The translations under genes were made by a program, and so were the position numbers. The notes below the pieces were generated by a model. The model saw only the letters and a list, made by a program, of their open reading frames with translations, was not told the origin of the DNA and made no database searches. From the NCBI GenBank assembly GCA_900753325.1, contig CAADYO010000001.1, positions 410 through 64,409 on the forward strand: a stretch of 64,000 nt of DNA, given 5' to 3'. This document shows, piece after piece, positions 38,175-48,316 of this stretch. The stretch is from Bacilli bacterium. GTDB lineage: Bacteria > Bacillota_I > Bacilli_A > RF39 > UBA660. Position 1 is the first letter of the stretch, and each line of letters begins with the position of its first letter.

Positions 38175-39584
38175 ATGGTGATTTTTGTGATGATTGTTAA
38201 TTATATTAAGAGAAAAGTTGGACCATCAAACGATTTTAAAATTAAAGAAATTTCTATAAATAACTTGAAAGTTACACTTTTTTTTAATGAAGTACTTACT
38301 GATACTAGTGCTATAGATAATTTTATATTGAAAAAACTATTAGTACTAAAGAAAAGTAATTTTAAAAATTTAAATAACTACTTACCTACTACTAATATTA
38401 TTAAGATTAATCTTACAGATATATTTAATTATGTTAATAAAGGATTTTTAATAATAATTAGTAAAAGGATATATGCTGTTGAAGTTAAAGCAAAGCTTGA
38501 TAGAGGTATCAATACAATAGAAAGTGAACTTTCTACTTCTGGGCCTAAAGATAGTTTTTCAGAAAATTATAATATTAACTTGGGATTAATTAGAAAAAGA
38601 ATTAAAAGCTGTGACTTAAAAGCAATTGATATGGAAATTGGTAGACTTACTAAGACTAAGGTGGGAATTTTGTATGTTGAAGGTATTGCTTCTAAAAAAA
38701 TAGTTCTAAGAATTGAAGAGATATTAAATAGAATTGATATAGATGGTATAATTGACTCTAGTTATTTAAAGACGACGTTAGAGGGCCAAAAAAGCTTTTT
38801 TCCAACTATTATGATGAGTGAGAGACCTGATAAAAGTACTATGGCTTTACTTGAAGGAAAAGTTGTCATTATTATTGATACTAGTTCTTATGCATTGATT
38901 TTACCTAGCTTTTTTGTTGATTTTTTTCATACAACAGATGATTATTATCAAAAGTCATTTAATACTACTTTTATTAGAATAATTCGTCTTGTCGCTTTTT
39001 TAATAGCAGTTTTTACTCCAGCAATATATATTGCTGTCACTACTAGAAACTACAATATTGTACCAATAGATTTATTGCTGATGCTTAAGGCTGGTAGAAC
39101 CTATGTACCTTTTCCAGCTTATATAGAAGCACTATTTATGATTATTTGCTTTGAAATACTGAAAGAATCAGATTTAAGAATGTCTAATACATCTGGATCT
39201 TCTATTTCTATTTTAGGCGGATTAATACTAGGAGATGCTGCAGTTAGTGCTGGAATAGTTTCTCCTATTATGATTATTATTGTAGCAATCTCTTCAATTG
39301 CTGGATTGGTTTTTTCATCTATTGAATTAGTCAATGCTCTAAGGCTTTATAAAATTATCTTATTGTTATTAGGGACACTTTTAGGTATTTATGGAGTTAT
39401 TATTGGTACTATTTATGTTATATATAAATTACTAACATTAAAGATATTTGGCATTCCATACTTGGTTCCTTTTATACCATTTGAAAAAAATGAAATTAAG
39501 GATTCTTTTATAAAACATGATGAAAGTATTAAGAAGAGAAATTCTTATCTAACTAAAAATATTGTGAGAGGAAAATATAAATGA
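38175..39584 (+). CDS. Spore germination protein, GerA-family A subunit
   Basis: SGPKDSFSENYNINLGLIRKRIKS motif and a C-terminal membrane bundle. The start codon is uncertain (no clear RBS). Confidence 0.8.
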   Translation: MVIFVMIVNYIKRKVGPSNDFKIKEISINNLKVTLFFNEVLTDTSAIDNFILKKLLVLKKSNFKNLNNYLPTTNIIKINLTDIFNYVNKGFLIIISKRIYAVEVKAKLDRGINTIESELSTSGPKDSFSENYNINLGLIRKRIKSCDLKAIDMEIGRLTKTKVGILYVEGIASKKIVLRIEEILNRIDIDGIIDSSYLKTTLEGQKSFFPTIMMSERPDKSTMALLEGKVVIIIDTSSYALILPSFFVDFFHTTDDYYQKSFNTTFIRIIRLVAFLIAVFTPAIYIAVTTRNYNIVPIDLLLMLKAGRTYVPFPAYIEALFMIICFEILKESDLRMSNTSGSSISILGGLILGDAAVSAGIVSPIMIIIVAISSIAGLVFSSIELVNALRLYKIILLLLGTLLGIYGVIIGTIYVIYKLLTLKIFGIPYLVPFIPFEKNEIKDSFIKHDESIKKRNSYLTKNIVRGKYK

Positions 39585-39985
39585 AAAAAATTTTTATTGC
39601 TGTTGTTTTAATAATTACTTTTGGTTTTATTATAAAAATTCCTGAATATCATGAATTAAATGACTTAGCAATTATTCAAGGCGTTGGTGTTGAACATAAA
39701 AACAGTTCCTATGTTGTTTATATGAAAGAAATTATACCTATTAGGGATGATCAGGGAATTAGTTATAAATATAAGTATTATGAAGCTAATGCTGATCTTT
39801 TGGAAAAAGCTTTGAAAAAAGTCCAAGATAAAACAAAAAAGAAACTATACTATGAAAAATGTAAGTTTCTTGTTACTAATATTGAGAATAGTGACTATAT
39901 AAAGAAAGTAATGAATATTCATCCTAAAAATGTTTATCACCCTGCTTCTTCAATAAAGTCTTACCTAAAAAAAACTAGTTCTTAG
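39581..39985 (+). CDS. Short Ger(x)C-like protein (N-terminal domain only, no lipobox Cys)
   Basis: ELNDLAIIQGVGVE after a hydrophobic N-terminus resembles the start of GerAC-type lipoproteins. It has 134 aa, versus the several-hundred-residue length I recall for that family. It overlaps the gerA-like stop by 4 nt. Confidence 0.45.
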   Translation: MKKIFIAVVLIITFGFIIKIPEYHELNDLAIIQGVGVEHKNSSYVVYMKEIIPIRDDQGISYKYKYYEANADLLEKALKKVQDKTKKKLYYEKCKFLVTNIENSDYIKKVMNIHPKNVYHPASSIKSYLKKTSS

Positions 39986-40487
39986 TTTCATTACAAGTGA
40001 ATCCCTGCTCTTCGTAATACTTTCTTTGTTCTGGCTTTTCTTTGAACTGATTTGTTAAATAGGTATTGGCATTATTATTATCAACTATATATTTAGATAT
40101 AGAAATAATTGTTTTGTTAGTATTTTTATTTATACTTATACCATCTATTTCAGATAATAAGGTTATTTCTTTTGTGGCCTCCTCTGGTAAAGGTTGAACT
40201 GCTGAGTCATTGTCTTTTATACCAACTTGTTCATATATGATAATATTTTGTTCAATTGTATCATTTACATACTTACTTCTACTTGTTATGGTAAGTGATG
40301 TGGTTGGATCCGTTTTAGAACAGGATAAAATTGTTATATCATCTTTTTCTTCGGTACTTTTTTTATCTTCTTGCAACTTTACATCTGGTATAGTAAGGCG
40401 AAGTATTGGAGGGACAATTATAAAGATTGATAAGAAAAAAACTGCTAAAAGTAATAAAATGTTAACTGGGTCTTTTATCTTTTTCAT
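39975..40487 (-). CDS. Membrane-anchored protein with a Cys-bracketed domain (paralogue of 35612..36226)
   Basis: AAAAGGAGG RBS, TM ILLLLAVFFLSIFIIVPPIL, and a domain running from LSCSKT to EEQGFTCNE. Confidence 0.55.
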   Translation of the reverse strand: MKKIKDPVNILLLLAVFFLSIFIIVPPILRLTIPDVKLQEDKKSTEEKDDITILSCSKTDPTTSLTITSRSKYVNDTIEQNIIIYEQVGIKDNDSAVQPLPEEATKEITLLSEIDGISINKNTNKTIISISKYIVDNNNANTYLTNQFKEKPEQRKYYEEQGFTCNETKN

Positions 40488-40522: not shown

Positions 40523-40753
40523 TTATAGGTCTTTTTTCAAACCTTTTAAATAATTAAGTTTTTCTTGAAGAAGTTGTCTTCTTTTTTCTTCTTCTTGGCT
40601 ATCTACCATAAAGGCGCTTCCTATTTTTTTTATAATTGCTCCTTCATGAATATTTCCTTTGATGTCACTTTTTGTTAATGTTATTTTTTCTTTTGTTTCA
40701 ATATTTTCACAAGTAACTATTTTATCTTCTATGTAGTCTATGGCATATTTCAT
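40523..40753 (-). CDS. DUF3006 domain protein
   Basis: 76 aa, MKYAIDYIEDKIVTCENIETKEKITL...IHEGAIIKK, immediately downstream of a ComEC-type MBL gene. This is the usual pairing. Confidence 0.65.
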   Translation of the reverse strand: MKYAIDYIEDKIVTCENIETKEKITLTKSDIKGNIHEGAIIKKIGSAFMVDSQEEEKRRQLLQEKLNYLKGLKKDL

Positions 40754-40761
40754 TTTTTCAC

Positions 40762-41670
40762 CTACCCGTTTGTATCTGTTTTTATAGTTTTAAATTGTAT
40801 TATGTTGCCATTTGATTCAGCAACAATTGTTCCTTCTTGATCTGTTCTATATATAATTATTTTCTTATCATTTAGTTTTTTTAAAGTTTCATCATGTGGA
40901 TGTTTATAGGTATTATTTATACCTACAGAAATAATAGCGTATTGGGGATTTACTTTATTTAGGAATTCTTTTGATGTTGAGTATCTTGAGCCATGATGTC
41001 CTACTTTTAAGACATCGCTAGCAATATTTTTATTAAGAAGTTGTTTTTCTACTTTCGTTGAAGCGTCTCCTGTAAATAAAAATGTGTTAGTTCCATGCTT
41101 TAACCTCAAAACAATTGATGAATCATTTAAGTTCTTAGCTTCATTATTTACATATAGTGTTGTAATTTTAGTATCAGAAAAGGAAAATTCTTGATCTATT
41201 GTTGGGGTTTCAAAAGCAATTTGTTTTTCACTTAAAGCGTCTAAAACATCTTCAAATGTTTTTGTTGTAGTTATCAAATCTGGCATGTAGAATGTACCAA
41301 TATCAAAATTTTTAATTATATCATCCATTCCACCAATATGATCTTCATGGGCATGTGTTGCTATTACATAATCAAATTTAGTTATACCTAAACTTTTAAA
41401 ATAATTAACTAATTTTGGGCCGTCTTCATTGTTACCAGCATCAATTAGCATATAATGTCCATTATTAGAAAGTAATATTGAGTCGGCTTGGCCTACATCC
41501 AAAAAGTAAACGTCTAGATTGTTTGATGATTCTTTTAGTGTGCTTTCTGTTTTTCTTTGTTTTATAGTATTATCATTTACAGTTTTGTCGGTATTTTGAT
41601 AGGTACTATACACATATGCTATAGCTATAAATAGTAAAATCAAAATTCTTTTTACAGTTTTCTTTTTCAT
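40762..41670 (-). CDS. ComEC/Rec2-related MBL-fold hydrolase (stand-alone lactamase_B domain, membrane or secreted)
   Basis: YFLDVGQADSILL, ATHAHEDHIGG, GDAS and VGHHGS motifs behind an N-terminal anchor. Confidence 0.8.
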   Translation of the reverse strand: MKKKTVKRILILLFIAIAYVYSTYQNTDKTVNDNTIKQRKTESTLKESSNNLDVYFLDVGQADSILLSNNGHYMLIDAGNNEDGPKLVNYFKSLGITKFDYVIATHAHEDHIGGMDDIIKNFDIGTFYMPDLITTTKTFEDVLDALSEKQIAFETPTIDQEFSFSDTKITTLYVNNEAKNLNDSSIVLRLKHGTNTFLFTGDASTKVEKQLLNKNIASDVLKVGHHGSRYSTSKEFLNKVNPQYAIISVGINNTYKHPHDETLKKLNDKKIIIYRTDQEGTIVAESNGNIIQFKTIKTDTNG

Positions 41671-41733
41671 TTATATTCTCCTACTTTTTCATTATAACAC
41701 TTTTTCAAAGAAAAAAGAATTAACTATGTAATT

Positions 41734-43266
41734 CTATTTTTCACCAGATGATTTTTGTTCCTTATATTTTTGATAATCATATGTTTTAAATAATTCATTT
41801 TTTGTTATATGATATTTACTTTCAAAGCGTTTTGCTGATGTAAACACTTGGGAAACATTATCTGAGGTAACTTTAATATTTCTTGCTTCAAAAAATTTAC
41901 AGCGTGCATAAATTAATTCTGTGCTTTGCATTAGAATGATTGGACTTTTTATTACTAAACCTGAAATATTTAAATCTTCTATAAGTTGCATTTTTTCTTT
42001 TAATGTTTGAATATTGTAACCGAAGATTGTTGGTAATCCTTTTACCATACTAATTATTTCACTCTGCGAATAGCCAAGTCCTTTGATATCGGACATTCTC
42101 GTTTTCATATTTTGAGTGCTAAGTCCTAATAGAACTGGAAATAATTTTACCATTCTTAAAACTTCGTCTTCTTTTAGTCCAAAACTTTCTAGTGTATCAA
42201 TTTTATCTTTGATTGTATCCATTCTAAGACTAAAGATAGGTGGATTGTTGATGGTCATTTTAATAACTTCGCTTTTACTATAACCTAATTGCATCATACT
42301 TTCTATTTTTTGATTAATTGAATCATAACTATATGTATATATCATCGGTAGTTTTTTACATATTTTATGTATCTCAGCTTCTGTATATCCGTGACTTAAA
42401 AATAAATTATGCATTCCATTTATCTTTTCTGGGCTTAATGTAATTACAGTTGGACAGCGTTTTATCATAGCAATTGTTTCTTCCTTGGTATTTCCAGCAG
42501 CGTAAAAGTTATTGAAGCGTTCTTTTAACTTGTCGTTACTTAAACTAAATAATGTTTGAGCGTTTGAAATTATGGCAATTGCTTCTGATCTTTTGAAACC
42601 ATAACTTATTATGCTATTAATCTTATCTGTGATATTTTCTTCTTTATAACCGAATATAGTTGGTAGTAAGACGGACATTTGGTGAAACTTTTCTGGCTTA
42701 AAGCCTAATTTTTCCATAAATTTAACGCGACCAACAATTCTATCTACACTTAAAGTATAAATTGTAGGAAATGTTTTAACAATTTTTATTACTTCCTCAT
42801 CTGTATAACCTAGTTTTTTAAATAGTTTGTCCTTTTCTTCAATATTTTCTTTTTTAACACTTAATAAGCTCGGCGTATCAATAATCATTTTAATAACTTC
42901 ATTCACGGTATAACCTTTTTTTATTATATAATTGAACATGTCATTGATATTATCAATTCCTAAAGTATAAACTTTGGAATTTTTCTTTAAGATTGCTAAA
43001 GCCTCAGTTTCTTTAAAACCAAGTAATATAAAATTATTAATTTTTTCAGCTAATTTGGTAGGAGTGAAAGTTAGAAGATTTGGTGCATCTGCTGTTATTG
43101 ATATAATTTCATCTTTGGATAGACCTAGAATATCAAAGTAGGACCAAACACTTTCAATTCTTGATATGGCTGATTCTTCATTTATATCTTGATATATATA
43201 ACTGGACTTTATTTTATTTATTTGCGCATCATTATATCCAATTTTTTTTAAGTATTCTACTAACAT
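41734..43266 (-). CDS. mTERF-like tandem-repeat protein (510 aa)
   Basis: About 11 consecutive 35-aa units of the form G(Y/F)(S/T)xxE(I/V)xx(I/M)xxxxPx(I/L)(F/L)x(L/Y)Sxxx(I/L)xxK(I/M)xxLxxL. AAGAGGTAAAAAT RBS. Confidence 0.6.
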   Translation of the reverse strand: MLVEYLKKIGYNDAQINKIKSSYIYQDINEESAISRIESVWSYFDILGLSKDEIISITADAPNLLTFTPTKLAEKINNFILLGFKETEALAILKKNSKVYTLGIDNINDMFNYIIKKGYTVNEVIKMIIDTPSLLSVKKENIEEKDKLFKKLGYTDEEVIKIVKTFPTIYTLSVDRIVGRVKFMEKLGFKPEKFHQMSVLLPTIFGYKEENITDKINSIISYGFKRSEAIAIISNAQTLFSLSNDKLKERFNNFYAAGNTKEETIAMIKRCPTVITLSPEKINGMHNLFLSHGYTEAEIHKICKKLPMIYTYSYDSINQKIESMMQLGYSKSEVIKMTINNPPIFSLRMDTIKDKIDTLESFGLKEDEVLRMVKLFPVLLGLSTQNMKTRMSDIKGLGYSQSEIISMVKGLPTIFGYNIQTLKEKMQLIEDLNISGLVIKSPIILMQSTELIYARCKFFEARNIKVTSDNVSQVFTSAKRFESKYHITKNELFKTYDYQKYKEQKSSGEK

Positions 43267-43340
43267 ATTTTTACCTCTTTTTTCACTAGTAATAGTATAT
43301 AATATTTTATGTTATTTTTAAATGAATAAGGTTTTCTTTT

Positions 43341-43370
43341 ATTAAAAAAATCAATCTAATTGATTGATTT
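43341..43370 (-). terminator. Intrinsic terminator after the tRNA pair
   Basis: Minus-strand AAATCAATC-AATTA-GATTGATTT hairpin followed by a T-run. Confidence 0.55.
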
Positions 43371-43380
43371 AATTCCATAT

Positions 43381-43465
43381 TGGTGCGGGTAACAGGAGTT
43401 GAACCTGCAAGCCTTGCGGCACTAGATCCTAAGTCTAGCGCGTCTGCCAATTCCGCCATACCCGC
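43381..43465 (-). tRNA. tRNA-Leu (anticodon TAG)
   Basis: The reverse complement GCGGGTATGGCGGAATTGGCAGACGCGCTAGACTTAGGATCTAGTGCCGCAAGGCTTGCAGGTTCAACTCCTGTTACCCGCACCA has anticodon loop CTTAGGA, a long variable arm and an encoded CCA. Confidence 0.9.
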
Positions 43466-43477
43466 ATATAAATAAAA

Positions 43478-43554
43478 TGGTGGACCCTACAGGACTCGAA
43501 CCTGTGACCGCCCGGTTATGAGCCGGATGCTCTAACCAACTGAGCTAAGGGTCC
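43478..43554 (-). tRNA. tRNA with CAT anticodon (Met by anticodon; the body resembles lysidine-dependent tRNA-Ile2)
   Basis: The reverse complement GGACCCTTAGCTCAGTTGGTTAGAGCATCCGGCTCATAACCGGGCGGTCACAGGTTCGAGTCCTGTAGGGTCCACCA has the GGACC..TTAGCTCAGTTGGTTAGAGCA 5-prime half, which I associate with Bacillus-type tRNA-Ile(CAU). Confidence 0.85.
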
Positions 43555-43565
43555 GTTGCTATTTA

Positions 43566-43594
43566 ATAATAACATATATTTTTACTTGTTGCAA
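43566..43594 (-). promoter_or_regulatory. Candidate promoter of the tRNA pair
   Basis: On the minus strand, TTGCAA (43589..43594), a 17-nt spacer, then TATTAT (43566..43571), about 11 nt before the tRNA 5-prime end. Confidence 0.5.
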
Positions 43595-43628
43595 GAGAAA
43601 TAATAAAAAAAATAGAATAAGTTTTACT

Positions 43629-44048
43629 CTATTTTCCTAACATATTAATCAAATTAATTTTGAACATATCTTTCTCTGGATTTGTTTTAGAAATCATAAC
43701 ACCTTTATACGTTGATAATTCAGCTCTATGTCCTTCATCAAGGATTCCTTCTGGTGTAATATTTGTTAAAAGTATGATGTTTTTTTCTGTATATACTGTA
43801 TAGTGTAATGTTATTTCACCATGTACTTTTACAAACAATTCATCAGTTGGTAACTTTAATTCATAACTTGTAGTTTTGTTTTTTTCGTTTTTAGCTACCT
43901 CTTTACCTAAAAAATTACCTTTACGTAATTCTGGATAATAATTAAATGTTAACTTTTTATATGCTAACATATTGTATTTTCTGACTGATCTTTCTTTCTT
44001 TCTAAAATCATTTTCATCCAAATACTCGAAAATATACGCATTATTCAT
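43629..44048 (-). CDS. Hypothetical protein (139 aa from the ATG at 44048)
   Basis: GGGTGGGG RBS about 9 nt before the ATG (MNNAYIFEYLDEN...). The track start at 44063 is a GTG lying inside the RBS. No family recognised. Confidence 0.5.
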   Translation of the reverse strand: MNNAYIFEYLDENDFRKKERSVRKYNMLAYKKLTFNYYPELRKGNFLGKEVAKNEKNKTTSYELKLPTDELFVKVHGEITLHYTVYTEKNIILLTNITPEGILDEGHRAELSTYKGVMISKTNPEKDMFKINLINMLGK

Positions 44049-44120
44049 TATATTCAACCCCACCCTATATAAATTTTAATTTTGTATACTTTAGGCACAG
44101 CTCACCTTCAAAGTACACAT

Positions 44121-44187: not shown

Positions 44188-46449
44188 TTACTTATGATAT
44201 GTATATACTTTAGCTGTTTGGCTCTCATTTTGACTATTAGCCATAGCTTCTACCATTGCTTCTACAGCAGCAACTTTTTCTTCTTGAGTTAAATCTTGTT
44301 CATCGTATTCATATATTGTTTGACCAGATTTATTAGTGGAAGGAGCCATTTTTTCCGAAGCATTTGGATCTGGTAATGGTTCATTTGTTTTATCATTAGA
44401 ATCATCGGTTGTTATATCTTTGACTGAATCGTCTAGGTTACCATCTTTATCAGAATGATTGCTATCAAAGTCGGTGTTATGTCCTAAATCATTTTCGTTA
44501 ACCTTTCCACCAGCATTTTGATTTTTATTGGCATCATCAATCTTATCTTGTAAATCTTTTTCATCTTTTGCTACTTCTTCATTATGTTCATCTCTAGTAC
44601 GATCAGCTTCTTCTTGCTGACGTTTTGCTTCTTCATCAGCAGTTCTTTCAGCATCAGTTCTTGCTTGGTCGTTTGCTCTTTTAATACCTGCACTGGCTGC
44701 ATTTTCGGCTTGTTCTACTCTTTCTAATCCTGCTACTCTGATAGCTTGTGATCTATCAGAAGTTTTTTCAGTAATTGTTTCTGAATGCTGATATGCTGAA
44801 TTATCTGAATATACAATTGTACCATTGAAACTACCATTTTCATATTTGAAAGCAACATTTACATTTTCTTTAAATCTATCTAGTTGACTTATATCTCTAT
44901 GAGCATCATCTATTACAGCAGCATCTTTAGACTCTAATTCTGCTGTTTTCTTAGCTTTTGCTTCATCATAATCTGCATAGTCACTGTTAGGTGTTGTACT
45001 TAAATTTACTAGGTATGCTTTTTCAATAATATCATTGGCACGATTACAAATACCTAAATCATCTAAGTAAGCAACTTGTGCATCTGACAACGTTTGATCT
45101 ATTTCAAGATTTTGGAATAGTAATTCAGCGGCACTAACCATTGGAATTATTGAAAATTTATATGGTTCAATATTATCTCTTGGATCACTATGAGCAATTC
45201 CTACTTCTCTTTTTTCTGATTCTATTGGGAAGTCTTTACTTAATTCTAGATAAAAAGCATTTACTTTTCCTACTTGTTCCATTCCAGTTGCTTCTTTACA
45301 TTGTAAGAACATTTCATGATATTTATTGTAAAAATCTTTTGCTTCCTTACTATCAAATATAGTTGATAATTGAACTGGATTTGATCTTGTTTCTAAGATA
45401 TGAGCACCCATTAATTGAAGATTAGCTGTTTTGTAAGAGTCTGATAGCTTAGTGGTATCTAATTCAGCTCCATTAAATATCTCAGCCATTTGACTCTTTG
45501 TATAATTATTGTATACCATGGCCATAGCAACTACTTCATCCCAAGTTAGAGCTGCTTTTATGTCTTTTCCAGGTTCATAATATGCATTAGCAAATGTTAT
45601 ATTAAATTTATCTAAAGTATTACTAACATTTGACATAAATGCTTTTTGTGTTTCACTTTTTGATGCTTGTACTATTCCATCAAATGTATCTAAATTTACA
45701 TCTGTTACAGTTGGAGTTGGCGTTTCTACATTTTCTTGTGTCTTACTATTATTGCATCCTGGTAAAATGAACATAGTTAAAGCAACAAGTGTAGCAGTTA
45801 TTCTTTTTACAGTTTTACCAACAAGTGTATTACTAAAATGCTTAGTAAAAAAGTTCTCCTTTTTAGGATTTTCTTCTTTGGCTTTTTTTACTTCTTTAGT
45901 TTTGACTTTTAATTCTTGATATTTGCTTTTTAATCGATTGGCTGCTTTTACACCAGTTATTGTTTTTAGGAAATCATTAAATTTTTCTTTCTTTGAAACA
46001 TTATTTTTTACTGAAGACTTCTCTTTATTGGCGATTTTTCTAGCTGAAGCATTTTCTTTTAATGATCTAAATTTATTTTTTAACCAGTTAAAAGCTGTTA
46101 TTCCAGTCATTGCTTTTAAAATCTTGTGTGATTTAGGGAAAACATTTTCTACTTCTTCTGAATTTAATTGATATGGATCATCACTAGTTCTAAATTCTTG
46201 GAACATTTCAGTGAATTCCTCACCTGTTGCTCTGTATATATATTTTTGATCTATTATATCACGTAGGTCTTCTATTCCGTTATCATCCATAAATTTACAA
46301 GCTATTTCTTTTCCACCTTCATAATCGGTATTATATACGCTTCCGTCTTTATAAAATATACAAGCTTGCCATTTTAGTTCTGGCTCTTCTGTTTCTGAAT
46401 TCGTAGTATAAAACTTATAAAATACTATGTTTCTAATTTCTTTTTCCAT
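44188..46449 (-). CDS. Large bitopic envelope protein, unknown function (753 aa)
   Basis: GGGGGAAATAAAA RBS; a roughly 215-aa N-terminal domain containing a duplicated (M/I)TG(I/V)xAxNxLKxK(F/Y)xxLK segment; a single TM ITATLVALTMFILPGC; a roughly 330-aa external domain; and an acidic, low-complexity C-terminus. Confidence 0.6.
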   Translation of the reverse strand: MEKEIRNIVFYKFYTTNSETEEPELKWQACIFYKDGSVYNTDYEGGKEIACKFMDDNGIEDLRDIIDQKYIYRATGEEFTEMFQEFRTSDDPYQLNSEEVENVFPKSHKILKAMTGITAFNWLKNKFRSLKENASARKIANKEKSSVKNNVSKKEKFNDFLKTITGVKAANRLKSKYQELKVKTKEVKKAKEENPKKENFFTKHFSNTLVGKTVKRITATLVALTMFILPGCNNSKTQENVETPTPTVTDVNLDTFDGIVQASKSETQKAFMSNVSNTLDKFNITFANAYYEPGKDIKAALTWDEVVAMAMVYNNYTKSQMAEIFNGAELDTTKLSDSYKTANLQLMGAHILETRSNPVQLSTIFDSKEAKDFYNKYHEMFLQCKEATGMEQVGKVNAFYLELSKDFPIESEKREVGIAHSDPRDNIEPYKFSIIPMVSAAELLFQNLEIDQTLSDAQVAYLDDLGICNRANDIIEKAYLVNLSTTPNSDYADYDEAKAKKTAELESKDAAVIDDAHRDISQLDRFKENVNVAFKYENGSFNGTIVYSDNSAYQHSETITEKTSDRSQAIRVAGLERVEQAENAASAGIKRANDQARTDAERTADEEAKRQQEEADRTRDEHNEEVAKDEKDLQDKIDDANKNQNAGGKVNENDLGHNTDFDSNHSDKDGNLDDSVKDITTDDSNDKTNEPLPDPNASEKMAPSTNKSGQTIYEYDEQDLTQEEKVAAVEAMVEAMANSQNESQTAKVYTYHK

Positions 46450-46462
46450 TTTTATTTCCCCC

Positions 46463-48316
46463 TTATTGTTTCAATCTCTTATCACCTGTATAGTACCAGT
46501 TGTTATTTAGTAAGTTAGTGTCATTATAGTGACTCCATTTTTCTTCCGTTTTTCCTTCACTCTTTAATTTCCTAGTTCTTGTACTAGCATAACATACTGT
46601 TCCATAAATTGGTTCTGTTCTAGTAGCTATTTCTGATGTTGTTATGGTTCTATAAATGTTAACTGTCTTTGTTGTATATCCTCCACAGCTTGCCATAATA
46701 CCATTTGAACTAGATATTGGTGTTGTTGTACTTGATACAGCCTGAATACTTCCATTGTATGTATATTCATCATAATAGAAATTTGGTAGTGTTGTACATG
46801 TATCTGAACAATAGCTATAGTCTGCACCTACAAAGATGTAATGCTTAGTTTCAGTATCTCTTGGTGGATTCTTGTATAGTTTTCTACCATTATATGTCCA
46901 GCCATCTACTGAATGTTGTGTTGATGAAGTAACACTGTTGATGCTTGAATATCTTGTAGTTGTTGCATATGTCACATTGCTTATTATTACGTAATTATAA
47001 TTAGTACATGTTTTTTCTTGATATGAACCGGCCGTAATTTGAGTCGTTCTATCTTTTTGATATTTTTTCTCATACGTTCCAATTTTTTCTTTACGTTCGT
47101 ATAATTTTCTTTCTTCTAAACATTTTATATCAGTACTAGCACAAGTTATAGCTTCTGTTTTACAACTTGTTTTGTTCCAACTCGTCCATTTTGTCCATGA
47201 TGTGAATTCAGCATGTGTAGTTCTAGCATATTTATACTCATATTCTTTCTCGTCGGGTATGTCTTTACAAGCTTTTTCATATGCTTCTTTACTAACTACA
47301 TTTCCTGAGGCGTCATAATATTTACCATTTACTATTTCACAATAGTGTTTCTCGTCAGGCTTGGCTGTACATTCTTCTTCATATGTATTTTTATCGACAA
47401 CATTTCCAGCTTTTCCATAATATTTACCATTAACTTTCTCACAATAGTGTTTCTCATCTGGTTTATTCTTACAAGATTTCTCATATGCTTTTTTACTAAC
47501 TACATTTCCTGAGGCATCATAATACTTGCCGTCAACTTTAATACATATATATTTATCAGCTGGCTTTTTAACACATTCTTTGTCATATGTTGATCTATTA
47601 ACTATATTTCCGTTTTTACCATAGTATTTGCCATTTGCCTTAACACAATAATATTTAGTTTCGAAATTTGTAATTTTACCACATTCATTTTCATAGGTTT
47701 TTTTATTTACAACATTTCCTGACTTACTGTAATATTTGCCATTTACTATTTGACAATAATACTTTTTAGTGATTGGTGTGTTTGGATTTATAACTGTTCC
47801 TTTTACTACTATGTCAGTTGACTTTTTCTCACATATATTTGACTCACAGTATGTATAGCAACCAAGGTGAACTAAAATGTAATCCTCTTTTTCACTATCT
47901 TTCAAATTAACTTTTAAAATATATTCGTCAGATGCTTTTGTTATTTTTACATAACTTTTTTCAACATCTACTGCTTTATTATTTTTATCAATTAGAGGTG
48001 TAATAATCTTTAAGCCTATCATTTCGCTTAAGGTCATTTCCTTATAGTCACCCTCATTTTGTGGTAATCTCTCATCTGTATAATAAGAAATAGCAGCTTC
48101 TTTCATTCTTTTTAAGTTATCTGCAAATATTTGCGATGTTAAAGCACTTACATCACTATTGTTATTCCCATTATTTTTTATATTTTTGTTAATAGTTGGT
48201 GTTATGAATTTTGGCAATAACCAAACTAATAAAAATACAAAAATTATTATTAATATTAGCTTTAATAGAAAATTTCTAAAAGGGAATCCTCTATTTTCAT
48301 ATTCTTCCGTATACAT
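46463..48316 (-). CDS. Membrane-anchored Cys-rich repeat protein, unknown function (617 aa)
   Basis: GGGGGAG RBS, N-terminal TM LLKLILIIIFVFLLVWLL, five Cys-bracketed repeats, and a T/S/Y/C-rich C-terminal half. Confidence 0.6.
   Translation of the reverse strand: MYTEEYENRGFPFRNFLLKLILIIIFVFLLVWLLPKFITPTINKNIKNNGNNNSDVSALTSQIFADNLKRMKEAAISYYTDERLPQNEGDYKEMTLSEMIGLKIITPLIDKNNKAVDVEKSYVKITKASDEYILKVNLKDSEKEDYILVHLGCYTYCESNICEKKSTDIVVKGTVINPNTPITKKYYCQIVNGKYYSKSGNVVNKKTYENECGKITNFETKYYCVKANGKYYGKNGNIVNRSTYDKECVKKPADKYICIKVDGKYYDASGNVVSKKAYEKSCKNKPDEKHYCEKVNGKYYGKAGNVVDKNTYEEECTAKPDEKHYCEIVNGKYYDASGNVVSKEAYEKACKDIPDEKEYEYKYARTTHAEFTSWTKWTSWNKTSCKTEAITCASTDIKCLEERKLYERKEKIGTYEKKYQKDRTTQITAGSYQEKTCTNYNYVIISNVTYATTTRYSSINSVTSSTQHSVDGWTYNGRKLYKNPPRDTETKHYIFVGADYSYCSDTCTTLPNFYYDEYTYNGSIQAVSSTTTPISSSNGIMASCGGYTTKTVNIYRTITTSEIATRTEPIYGTVCYASTRTRKLKSEGKTEEKWSHYNDTNLLNNNWYYTGDKRLKQ
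47267..47764 (-). repeat. Five tandem coding repeats (about 28-aa core, 34-36 aa period)
   Basis: KYYCQIVNGKYYSKSGNVVNKKTYENEC / KYYCVKANGKYYGKNGNIVNRSTYDKEC / KYICIKVDGKYYDASGNVVSKKAYEKSC / KHYCEKVNGKYYGKAGNVVDKNTYEEEC / KHYCEIVNGKYYDASGNVVSKEAYEKAC (residues about 185-350). Confidence 0.8.

Follow-up and report, generated by a model that had tools for sequence, protein, structure and literature searches.

Proteins of the mTERF family are textbook organellar factors; MTERF1, the mitochondrial transcription termination factor, binds inside the tRNA-Leu(UUR) gene. The present analysis concerns a gene for a member of this family in the genome of an uncultured representative of the Bacilli (assembly GCA_900753325.1, contig CAADYO010000001.1). 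The gene lies within a stretch of 64,000 nucleotides (positions 410 to 64,409 of the contig), which was analysed as a whole and is referred to as the window; the gene and its product are hereafter named the window gene and the window protein. In a survey of plant mTERFs from 2026, bacteria are stated to be devoid of mTERF genes (PMC12977773). Tandem mTERF-like proteins of gut Bacillota, designated pTERFs, were described from metagenome-assembled genomes (MAGs) in 2024 (Nucleic Acids Res; PMC11417379).

The pTERF family was reported to comprise about 46 homologues with 3–11 tandem units, all of them from MAGs and mostly from Bacillota (PMC11417379). pTERF1 (MBQ3414883.1; identifier TR_35_C32_2, period 35, at least six units) is encoded by a MAG in the RGIG catalogue that is labelled 'Clostridia bacterium'. 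It binds the sequence ACTNNNAGTC with a dissociation constant (Kd) of 1.87 nM, and pTERF2 binds a different motif; the ligand is double-stranded DNA (dsDNA). The canonical Pro/Leu pattern was not seen in pTERF1, whose homology to eukaryotic mTERFs, at 9–18% identity, was called distant. Gene Ontology (GO) terms for RNA metabolism were found among the predicted pTERF targets (PMC11417379). A preliminary description of the window gene, made from the sequence alone, had regarded the family as purely eukaryotic and its bacterial role as undefined. The former view no longer stands in the light of the pTERFs, while the latter still applies to the role in vivo. The possibility raised in that description, that homologues had already been characterised, proved partly true, as two pTERFs were shown to bind DNA. 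Our finding is therefore not categorically new: a bacterial family of mTERF-like DNA-binding proteins with period 35 had been published in 2024.

Profile, motif, and fold firmly establish the window protein as a member of the mTERF family. The Pfam mTERF profile (PF02536) matched five stretches of the protein with 249 bits (E = 7e-74) at a curated cutoff of 23.1; no family model matching the protein was present in NCBIfam. Comparison with PDB sequences using phmmer retrieved MTERF1 (E = 2.5e-10) as well as the ciliate mitoribosomal protein mS93, MTERF3, and MTERF4, and the C-terminal tail of the window protein was aligned to the C-terminal end of MTERF1. The mTERF motif, a conserved proline with hydrophobic residues at P+3, P+10, and P+17, was identified. 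Classical mTERFs are eukaryotic proteins encoded in the nucleus and imported into mitochondria or plastids; this is their only attribute missing from the window protein, and it concerns distribution, not fold.

The AlphaFold2 model of the window protein, calculated from a 32-sequence family alignment, had a mean predicted local distance difference test score (pLDDT) of 93.1 and a predicted template-modelling score (pTM) of 0.79. In this model, each 35 residues form a unit of helix (10), short helix (5), and helix (13), and the array of units is enclosed between an N-terminal cap (helices 2–8, 13–20, 23–26, and 30–46) and a C-terminal cap. In a Foldseek search against PDB, the top eight matches were all human MTERF1–DNA complexes (E 6e-10 to 1.6e-8), with target-normalised template-modelling (TM) scores of 0.63–0.72 over about 300–328 columns. 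These were followed by MTERF3 (TM 0.72), the MTERF4-NSUN4 complex, and mS93. Only trivial matches were obtained with TALEs (TM 0.27–0.28; root-mean-square deviation about 25 Å) and designed toroids. One designed alpha toroid of 35-residue repeats, dTor_6x35L (PDB 4yxx), displayed a weak sequence match to residues 80–192 (E = 0.0045) and weak fold matches; the natural bacterial repeats are close to this idealised designed repeat.

The repeat structure of the window protein is strictly regular. Self-similarity (mean BLOSUM62 score, compared with 300 shuffles) peaked at offsets of 35, 70, and 105 only (z = 14.8, 15.3, and 15.0; next best offset, z = 3.2). Residues 47–431 fall into 11 successive, exactly aligned units of 35 with zero indels, in which G2 is conserved in 11, E7 in 10, and P16 in 9 of the 11 repeats. 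Mean pairwise identity between the repeats is only 27% at the amino acid level and 48% at the DNA level, so that the repeats are old and do not represent recent duplications. The pattern of the N-terminal cap is common to most family members, and no N-terminal presequence was found on the window protein, which has an isoelectric point (pI) of 9.0. Thus, the preliminary description of a bacterial mTERF-family protein with about 11 strict 35-residue repeats and an mTERF-like tail is confirmed, and all peptides quoted in it agree with the translation. The Pfam search, structure prediction, and fold search that it had proposed all returned the mTERF family.

The same design was revealed across the bacterial family. 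In a logo of 1172 family repeats, glycine occupied position 2 in 91%, proline position 16 in 91%, and lysine or arginine position 29 in 93% of cases. The hydrophobic positions were 19 (Y/F/L), 26 (I/L/M), and 33 (L/M/I/Y), corresponding to P+3, P+10, and P+17, and the highest entropy was displayed by positions 14, 15, 17, and 31–35. Successive repeats were spaced by exactly 35 residues in 857 of about 940 pairs. Within the bacterial family, conservation is highest in the C-terminal cap, LMQS..L.YARY.F...NY..LF...F...Y.ItK.ELL..Y.Y, with the near-invariant columns L445, A454, R455, L474, F475, and F481. Residues 432–510 of the window protein bear this signature in the form LMQS..L.YAR...F...F..KY.ItK.EL...YdY.

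Judging from the fold relatives among MTERF1–DNA complexes, the two tested pTERFs, and the pattern of basic and variable positions, the window protein very probably binds nucleic acid. It is a cytoplasmic all-alpha solenoid in which an N-terminal cap precedes eleven repeats of three helices each, followed by a conserved cap repeat and tail at the C-terminus. The scaffold residues G2, E7, and P16, together with the hydrophobic residues at P+3, P+10, and P+17, would set the geometry of the solenoid. The near-invariant basic residue at position 29 of each repeat could contact phosphates, and the variable positions around the proline (14, 15, and 17) and at 31–35 are candidates for determining target specificity; both sets of residues are predicted to lie on the concave face. 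The ligand of this superhelix would most probably be a specific dsDNA sequence, as in human MTERF1 and the two tested pTERFs, and we hold dsDNA to be the likelier target with moderate confidence. Bound to its site, the window protein may act as a transcription regulator or roadblock. With a similarly moderate confidence, we favour this overall reading of a sequence-specific dsDNA-binding solenoid that regulates or blocks transcription, while any specific physiological role can be proposed less confidently than that.

When 1.84 billion cluster representatives were searched exhaustively with phmmer, 1803 matches were obtained at E ≤ 1e-3, of which 561 remained at E ≤ 1e-10 and 108 at the strictest threshold of E ≤ 1e-30. 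With over 100 representative clusters at the last threshold, the family is far larger than reported. The best full-length matches were only 32–41% identical to the window protein. Among the 153 retrieved matches long enough to score, the best period was exactly 35 in 140 and 36 in twelve, the latter including plant proteins. The nearest named eukaryotic matches were from land plants (Turnera, Rhamnella, and Diphasiastrum) and a Symbiodinium protein annotated as 'MTERF4'; the plant matches had period 36 and 24–29% identity.

A scan of genome contigs with the single window protein gave no matches, and the sequences in the full-length family alignment (A1) had diverged too far for it to serve as a seed. 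Family loci were recovered from species-representative genomes with one strict pattern from an alignment of the C-terminal cap (A2). This resulted in 56 loci with a median G+C content of 26%, nearly all of them from gut MAGs (human, mouse, rabbit, goat, and other). They are labelled as Bacilli, Clostridia, Erysipelotrichaceae, Tenericutes, and Mycoplasmatota; Clostridium sp. CAG:433 is among them, as are five MAGs from the ruminant RGIG catalogue. The taxonomic survey suggested in the preliminary description thus showed that homologues are not rare and occur in MAGs of gut Bacilli. Exact look-ups of nine proteins from RGIG MAGs and one from Clostridium sp. CAG:433 identified a single database entry, MBQ3475117.1 ('hypothetical protein [Bacilli bacterium]'), a relative of the window protein from the RGIG catalogue whose accession falls in the same block as that of pTERF1. 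No family member was detected on viral contigs, and no meaningful fold relatives were found among viral proteins. Family members were also seen in MAGs classified as Patescibacteria and Actinomycetota, both distant from Bacillota, namely in L033 and L061 (labelled Candidatus Nanosyncoccus) and in L051 and L057 (labelled Paratractidigestivibacter). These could be due to binning contamination or lateral transfer.

A hidden Markov model (HMM) search of the open reading frames (ORFs) called in the window, in locus L005, and in the 56 genome loci revealed 140 family ORFs in 56 sources: 100 long paralogues, 39 small proteins, and the window gene. The long paralogues have a median length of 335 amino acids (aa), and only five reach 500 aa. 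At least two long paralogues form same-strand tandem arrays in 28 of 55 loci, with a maximum of seven in L041; these counts are lower bounds, as many contigs are cut. Paralogues inside one array are 32–66% identical. In three of the arrays (L041, L047, and L009), identity is only 32–45%, which indicates old duplication followed by strong diversification.

The small family member is a three-repeat 'mini-mTERF' of about 131 aa with an acidic C-terminus (...LNILFDSNPYILNL...LEDIVDDLDSNPYLF.EI), which was identified in 39 loci, inside or at the end of an array. It is far better conserved than the long proteins and may be their partner or regulator. Another conserved ORF of about 150 aa ('u150'; motif AY.EVLEILK.I..EDY.KIP...ILFRDYWAT) is located inside or just after the arrays in 13 loci; it has no match in Pfam, PADLOC, or PHROGs. 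Other recurrent neighbours of the arrays are a SpoU/MRM3-like methylase followed by PheS-PheT, as well as Era, AlaRS, Spo0A, and rubrerythrin. A functional link to SpoU-PheST, Era, or AlaRS was considered and rejected: these neighbours recur mostly in loci sharing the same flanks and appear to reflect mainly inherited synteny. The arrays, the small partner, and the C-terminal cap signature are new relative to PMC11417379. Within the 64-kb window, neither the small partner nor a second paralogue was found. The window gene is a solo copy, among the longest in the family, and in this respect atypical.

The history of the locus was traced in sister lineages, which were retrieved via PPDK, encoded 8–10 kb from the window gene. 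In the lineage L062 (PPDK 92% identical), the gene order is a 139-aa ORF, tRNA-Met, tRNA-Leu, and directly thereafter an MBL-fold gene (the region L062:20117-20477 was compared with window 41570-43339), and tblastn of the window protein against L062 revealed neither an mTERF gene nor a remnant of one. In a blastn comparison, L062 matched window positions 43800..43340 (88%) and 41565..40703 (75–90%), with nothing between. Nucleotide homology is thus interrupted between position 43340 and about 41565, the latter lying within the MBL gene. The left edge of the missing segment is approximate because the 5' region of the MBL gene has diverged. Absence from L062 means that a close relative can do without the gene.

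In the lineages L063 and L064 (PPDK 91% identical), the ORF found at the corresponding place is 510 or 508 aa long and follows the same tRNA pair and an inserted YbaK-like gene. Its alignment with the window protein, which covers the 281 residues available, is collinear and gap-free, but identity is only 44%. This is the lowest value among the 18 genes shared with these lineages; the other 17 are 52–95% identical, with a median of about 84%. As follows from the gap-free alignment at this low identity, the length and register of the protein are fixed while its sequence changes fast. The window gene has thereby been shown to be an accessory, rapidly diversifying gene and not a core one. The genes inserted around the same tRNA pair in L063 and L064 encode NUDIX and YbaK-like proteins. 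This pair coincides with a small hotspot at which gene content changes; no integrase lies near it.

The window represents an ordinary chromosome of uncultured spore-forming gut Bacilli. It encodes SpoIIM, GerA, MnmA, MurC, QueH, Cmk, PPDK, RNase HIII, ThyA, and DnaJ, and the closest named relatives of its PPDK are annotated 'MAG: Bacilli bacterium' (91–92% identity). Identical copies of the window protein are encoded by 21 metagenome contigs that were assembled independently of one another (the largest in the 0.2–1 Mb class), and the neighbours of the gene were unchanged in all four of the places displayed. The G+C content of the gene (27.4%; 19% at third codon positions) corresponds to that of the window (27.6%). 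Together with the ribosome-binding site listed in Table 1, the 21 contigs and the host-like G+C content identify the gene as genuinely bacterial. The preliminary description was correct in assigning an own ribosome-binding site to the gene and in reporting no mobile-element genes nearby; the annotated ORFs of the window included no such gene.

Table 1. Coordinates of the window gene, its parts and signals, neighbouring genes, and related features in other family loci (positions refer to the window unless preceded by a locus number).
Feature	Position	Strand	Remarks
Complete ORF, 510 aa, ATG start	41734..43266	(-)	Bacterial mTERF-family (pTERF-like) solenoid protein
N-terminal cap, residues 1–46	43129..43266	(-)	Degenerate, longer first repeat; pattern M..EYL..(I/L)GY....I.KI..
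Eleven strict 35-residue mTERF repeats, residues 47–431	41974..43128	(-)	Register, z-scores, conservation, regular secondary structure
C-terminal cap repeat and tail, residues 432–510, and stop codon	41734..41973	(-)	
Segment of ~1.7–1.8 kb missing in L062	41570..43339		Gene and its promoter; right edge exact, left edge approximate
Shine-Dalgarno-like AAGAGG	43274..43279	(-)	7 nt upstream of ATG, read from sequence
Sigma-70-like promoter candidate TTTAAA-17-TATACT	43294..43322	(-)	Between tRNA-Leu and ORF; consensus match only
AT-rich hairpin, 9-bp stem and U7 run	43341..43370	(-)	Directly 3' of tRNA-Leu; fold -8.9 kcal/mol, z = -1.9
tRNA-Leu(UAG)	43381..43465	(-)	Upstream of gene, same strand; context, not part of the feature
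tRNA-Met(CAU)	43478..43554	(-)	Upstream of gene, same strand; context, not part of the feature
144-aa ORF	43629-44063	(-)	Just upstream of tRNA pair
753-aa ORF	44188-46449	(-)	Adjacent to 617-aa ORF
617-aa ORF	46463-48316	(-)	
134-aa ORF	39581-39985	(+)	After GerA
170-aa ORF	39975-40487	(-)	Convergent; overlaps end of 134-aa ORF
Arrays with paralogues only 32–45% identical	L041:119-8249, L047:4297-9533, L009:4403-8415		
mini-mTERF, examples	L022:8231-8626, L029:8201-8596, L039:8201-8596, L005:2190-2582		About 35 more
u150, examples	L021:8365-8862, L014:8374-8862, L053:6869-7321, L008:8395-8835		Others present

The hairpin with its U7 run is the probable terminator of the tRNA unit and would separate the tRNAs from the window gene. 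Together with the promoter-like site, it weakly suggests that the gene forms its own transcription unit. Both signals are weak because the sequence is so AT-rich: scanning for sigma-70-like promoters gave 20 sites in this region versus 13.5 expected in shuffles, and of the hairpins folded manually one was plausible and one insignificant. A consensus terminator scan found no terminators, but its G+C rule is ill-suited to a genome with 27% G+C.

The two tRNA genes were the only Rfam matches near the gene. The preliminary description correctly placed the window gene just after this pair on the same strand, but the arrangement is not a feature of the family: a tRNA gene was present within about 8 kb in only 8 of the 56 family loci and adjoined the mTERF gene in just one of these, L033. 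This frequency is what chance would give, and the adjacency is probably coincidental. In L033, the adjoining gene is also that of tRNA-Leu(UAG). A functional tRNA link, modelled on the binding of MTERF1 within tRNA-Leu(UUR), was rejected as a family trait on the basis of these counts, the retention of the tRNA pair in the lineage without the gene, and the hairpin and promoter-like site that lie between. A link to the downstream MBL-fold/DUF3006 pair was rejected as well, since this pair and the same neighbours are present in the lineage without the mTERF gene.

Several other ORFs of the window were recorded. The adjacent 753- and 617-aa ORFs have no match in Pfam, PADLOC, or PHROGs; their position is kept in the sister lineages, and they diverge fast (about 51–52% and 66–69% identity). 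The 144-aa ORF, which is without family assignment, is 94% identical in both sister lineages, far above its neighbours. The 134-aa ORF matches the N-terminal domain of GerAC only, the 170-aa ORF belongs to no known family, and no GerAB-type gene was seen between GerA and these ORFs.

Several observations weigh against a DNA-binding regulator. MTERF3, MTERF4, and plant mTERF4/mTERF9 bind RNA or act in ribosome assembly, and MTERF4 recruits NSUN4, an RNA-modifying enzyme. Such RNA- or ribosome-associated mTERFs are also among the Foldseek matches of the window protein. Besides, the canonical Pro/Leu pattern that is clear in the window protein was not seen in pTERF1 (PMC11417379), and because of this discrepancy the two proteins may belong to different subfamilies. 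Instead of binding DNA, the window protein could act in RNA binding or ribosome biogenesis, with a solenoid that attaches to rRNA, tRNA, or mRNA or that brings in an RNA-modifying enzyme. Its structural matches to MTERF4-NSUN4, mitoribosome assembly intermediates, and mS93 would fit this function, as would the tRNA genes adjoining the window gene and the GO terms for RNA metabolism among predicted pTERF targets (PMC11417379). The same applies to the arrays that lie, in some relatives, directly upstream of the SpoU/MRM3-like rRNA methylase, RimM-TrmD, PheS/PheT, Era, or AlaRS. However, the translation-related neighbours occur mainly in loci with shared flanks (rubrerythrin upstream, PheS downstream), as expected for inherited synteny, and the tRNA adjacency is not conserved. 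The two bacterial pTERFs tested bind dsDNA with nanomolar Kd (PMC11417379), and the best fold matches are to DNA-bound MTERF1. Furthermore, neither absence from a sister lineage nor the fastest divergence in the neighbourhood is expected of a core ribosome-biogenesis factor. We therefore regard an RNA-directed function as possible, but rather unlikely.

The rapid turnover of the gene could also be explained by genetic conflict, with diversifying sequence-specific binders recognising phage or plasmid DNA, or acting in another conflict, possibly with the small acidic partner. In favour of such a defence role are tandem arrays of up to seven genes that are 32–66% identical, the presence or absence of the gene between sister lineages, its fastest divergence among 18 neighbouring genes, and the restriction of the family to phage-rich gut communities. 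Nevertheless, the long protein, the small partner, and u150 have no PADLOC match at E ≤ 0.01 and no PHROGs match, the arrays encode no enzymatic effector domain, and their neighbours are housekeeping genes and not defence islands. The family is also missing from viral contigs and lacks viral structural relatives, which makes defence a distinctly improbable function.

It is hardly probable that the mTERF fold serves here as a TPR/HEAT-like protein-protein scaffold with no nucleic-acid role. Alpha-solenoids are often protein-binding, and the conserved small partner in most related loci suggests protein-protein contacts in the family, but this partner is not encoded in the window. To our knowledge, all mTERF-family proteins characterised so far have DNA or RNA as their ligand. 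The fold matches include solved mTERF complexes, and both the near-invariant basic residue of each repeat and the pI of 9.0 point to nucleic acid, in line with the DNA binding of pTERFs (PMC11417379).

Finally, an artefact, i.e., mis-assembled eukaryotic DNA (for example, of dietary plants) or a very recent transfer from a eukaryote, as might be imagined from the land plant and dinoflagellate matches and from hosts living in guts rich in plant material, is effectively excluded by the recurrence of the identical gene, amid the same bacterial neighbours, on 21 contigs that were assembled independently, the host-like G+C content at all and at third codon positions, the bacterial ribosome-binding site, the lack of introns, the orthologue at the same locus in a sister lineage, and the distance of the plant matches in period and identity.

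The preferred reading, a sequence-specific dsDNA-binding regulator or roadblock, may be extended to the family as a whole. Strictly periodic bacterial mTERFs might constitute a fast-diversifying modular system of nucleic-acid recognition in gut Bacilli with reduced genomes. Its paralogues would read different sequences via positions 14, 15, 17, and 31–35 in a TALE- or PPR-like code, together with the mini-mTERF and sometimes u150, and would serve as polar roadblocks, insulators, or agents of genetic conflict. We offer this extension as speculative and consider it doubtful. In addition, bacterial proteins with the canonical motif would bear directly on whether organellar mTERFs are a eukaryotic invention or a result of exchange with bacteria. 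The current literature treats this question of origin as closed ('absent from prokaryotes', PMC12977773), and the distribution of the family, and hence its origin, needs re-examination. The exact 35-residue period of this natural, idealised mTERF scaffold, combined with the nanomolar specific DNA binding of pTERFs, is attractive for programmable binders. The arrays, small partner, and fast turnover point to unstudied biology in abundant uncultured gut bacteria. The gain from the window gene alone is modest, as it adds one more solo member. The interest of the finding is moderate: the family is barely studied, the mTERF field regards prokaryotes as being without mTERFs, and a new anatomy has been added. 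The latter includes the cap signature, the arrays, the small partner, u150, and the rapid turnover.

Among the known systems, TALE/STAR, PPR, and PUF proteins share with the window protein strict tandem repeats of ~33–35 residues with a conserved scaffold and few variable positions, and the diversification of paralogues in the window family likewise suggests modular recognition. TALEs, however, have another fold (TM 0.27–0.28), the window repeats (27% identity) are far more diverged than TALE repeats, and no one-repeat-one-base code is known. MTERF4-NSUN4, MTERF3, mS93, and plant mTERF4/mTERF9 have both fold and family in common with the window protein (Foldseek E 7e-7 to 1e-5), and some relatives of the window gene adjoin the SpoU/MRM3-like rRNA methylase. 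These matches, in structure and in sequence, are weaker than those to MTERF1, no methyltransferase partner is located beside the window gene, and the variable presence of this gene is unexpected for a ribosome-assembly factor.

Human MTERF1 (PDB 3MVA and 3N6S) is the best structural match from the same Pfam family (TM 0.63–0.72; about 21% identity). Both proteins are superhelical stacks of helix-helix-short helix motifs and have a homologous C-terminal tail. MTERF1 contains fewer, irregularly spaced motifs in about 340 mature residues, compared with 11 exact units plus caps in the 510 aa of the window protein. It is nuclear-encoded and has a mitochondrial presequence, whereas the window protein is bacterial and has none.

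The closest relationship is that to pTERFs. The window protein shares with them the head-to-tail repeats of period 35, a number of units (11 canonical ones) at the top of the reported range of 3–11, a three-helix unit similar to the mTERF motif, annotated mTERF motifs, and an origin in MAGs of uncultured gut Bacillota. Among the sources of pTERFs is the RGIG catalogue, which also contains relatives of the window protein. It differs in having the Pro/Leu pattern and a Pfam mTERF score of 249 bits, the pattern being that not seen in pTERF1, and in belonging to a family with gene arrays, a small partner, and a C-terminal cap signature, none of which were described in PMC11417379. Compared by description, the window family and pTERFs are probably one family, in which either pTERF1 represents a more diverged branch or its repeat register was read differently. 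The window protein is likely a new, unusually long, solo member of this family and probably belongs to the pTERFs sensu stricto.

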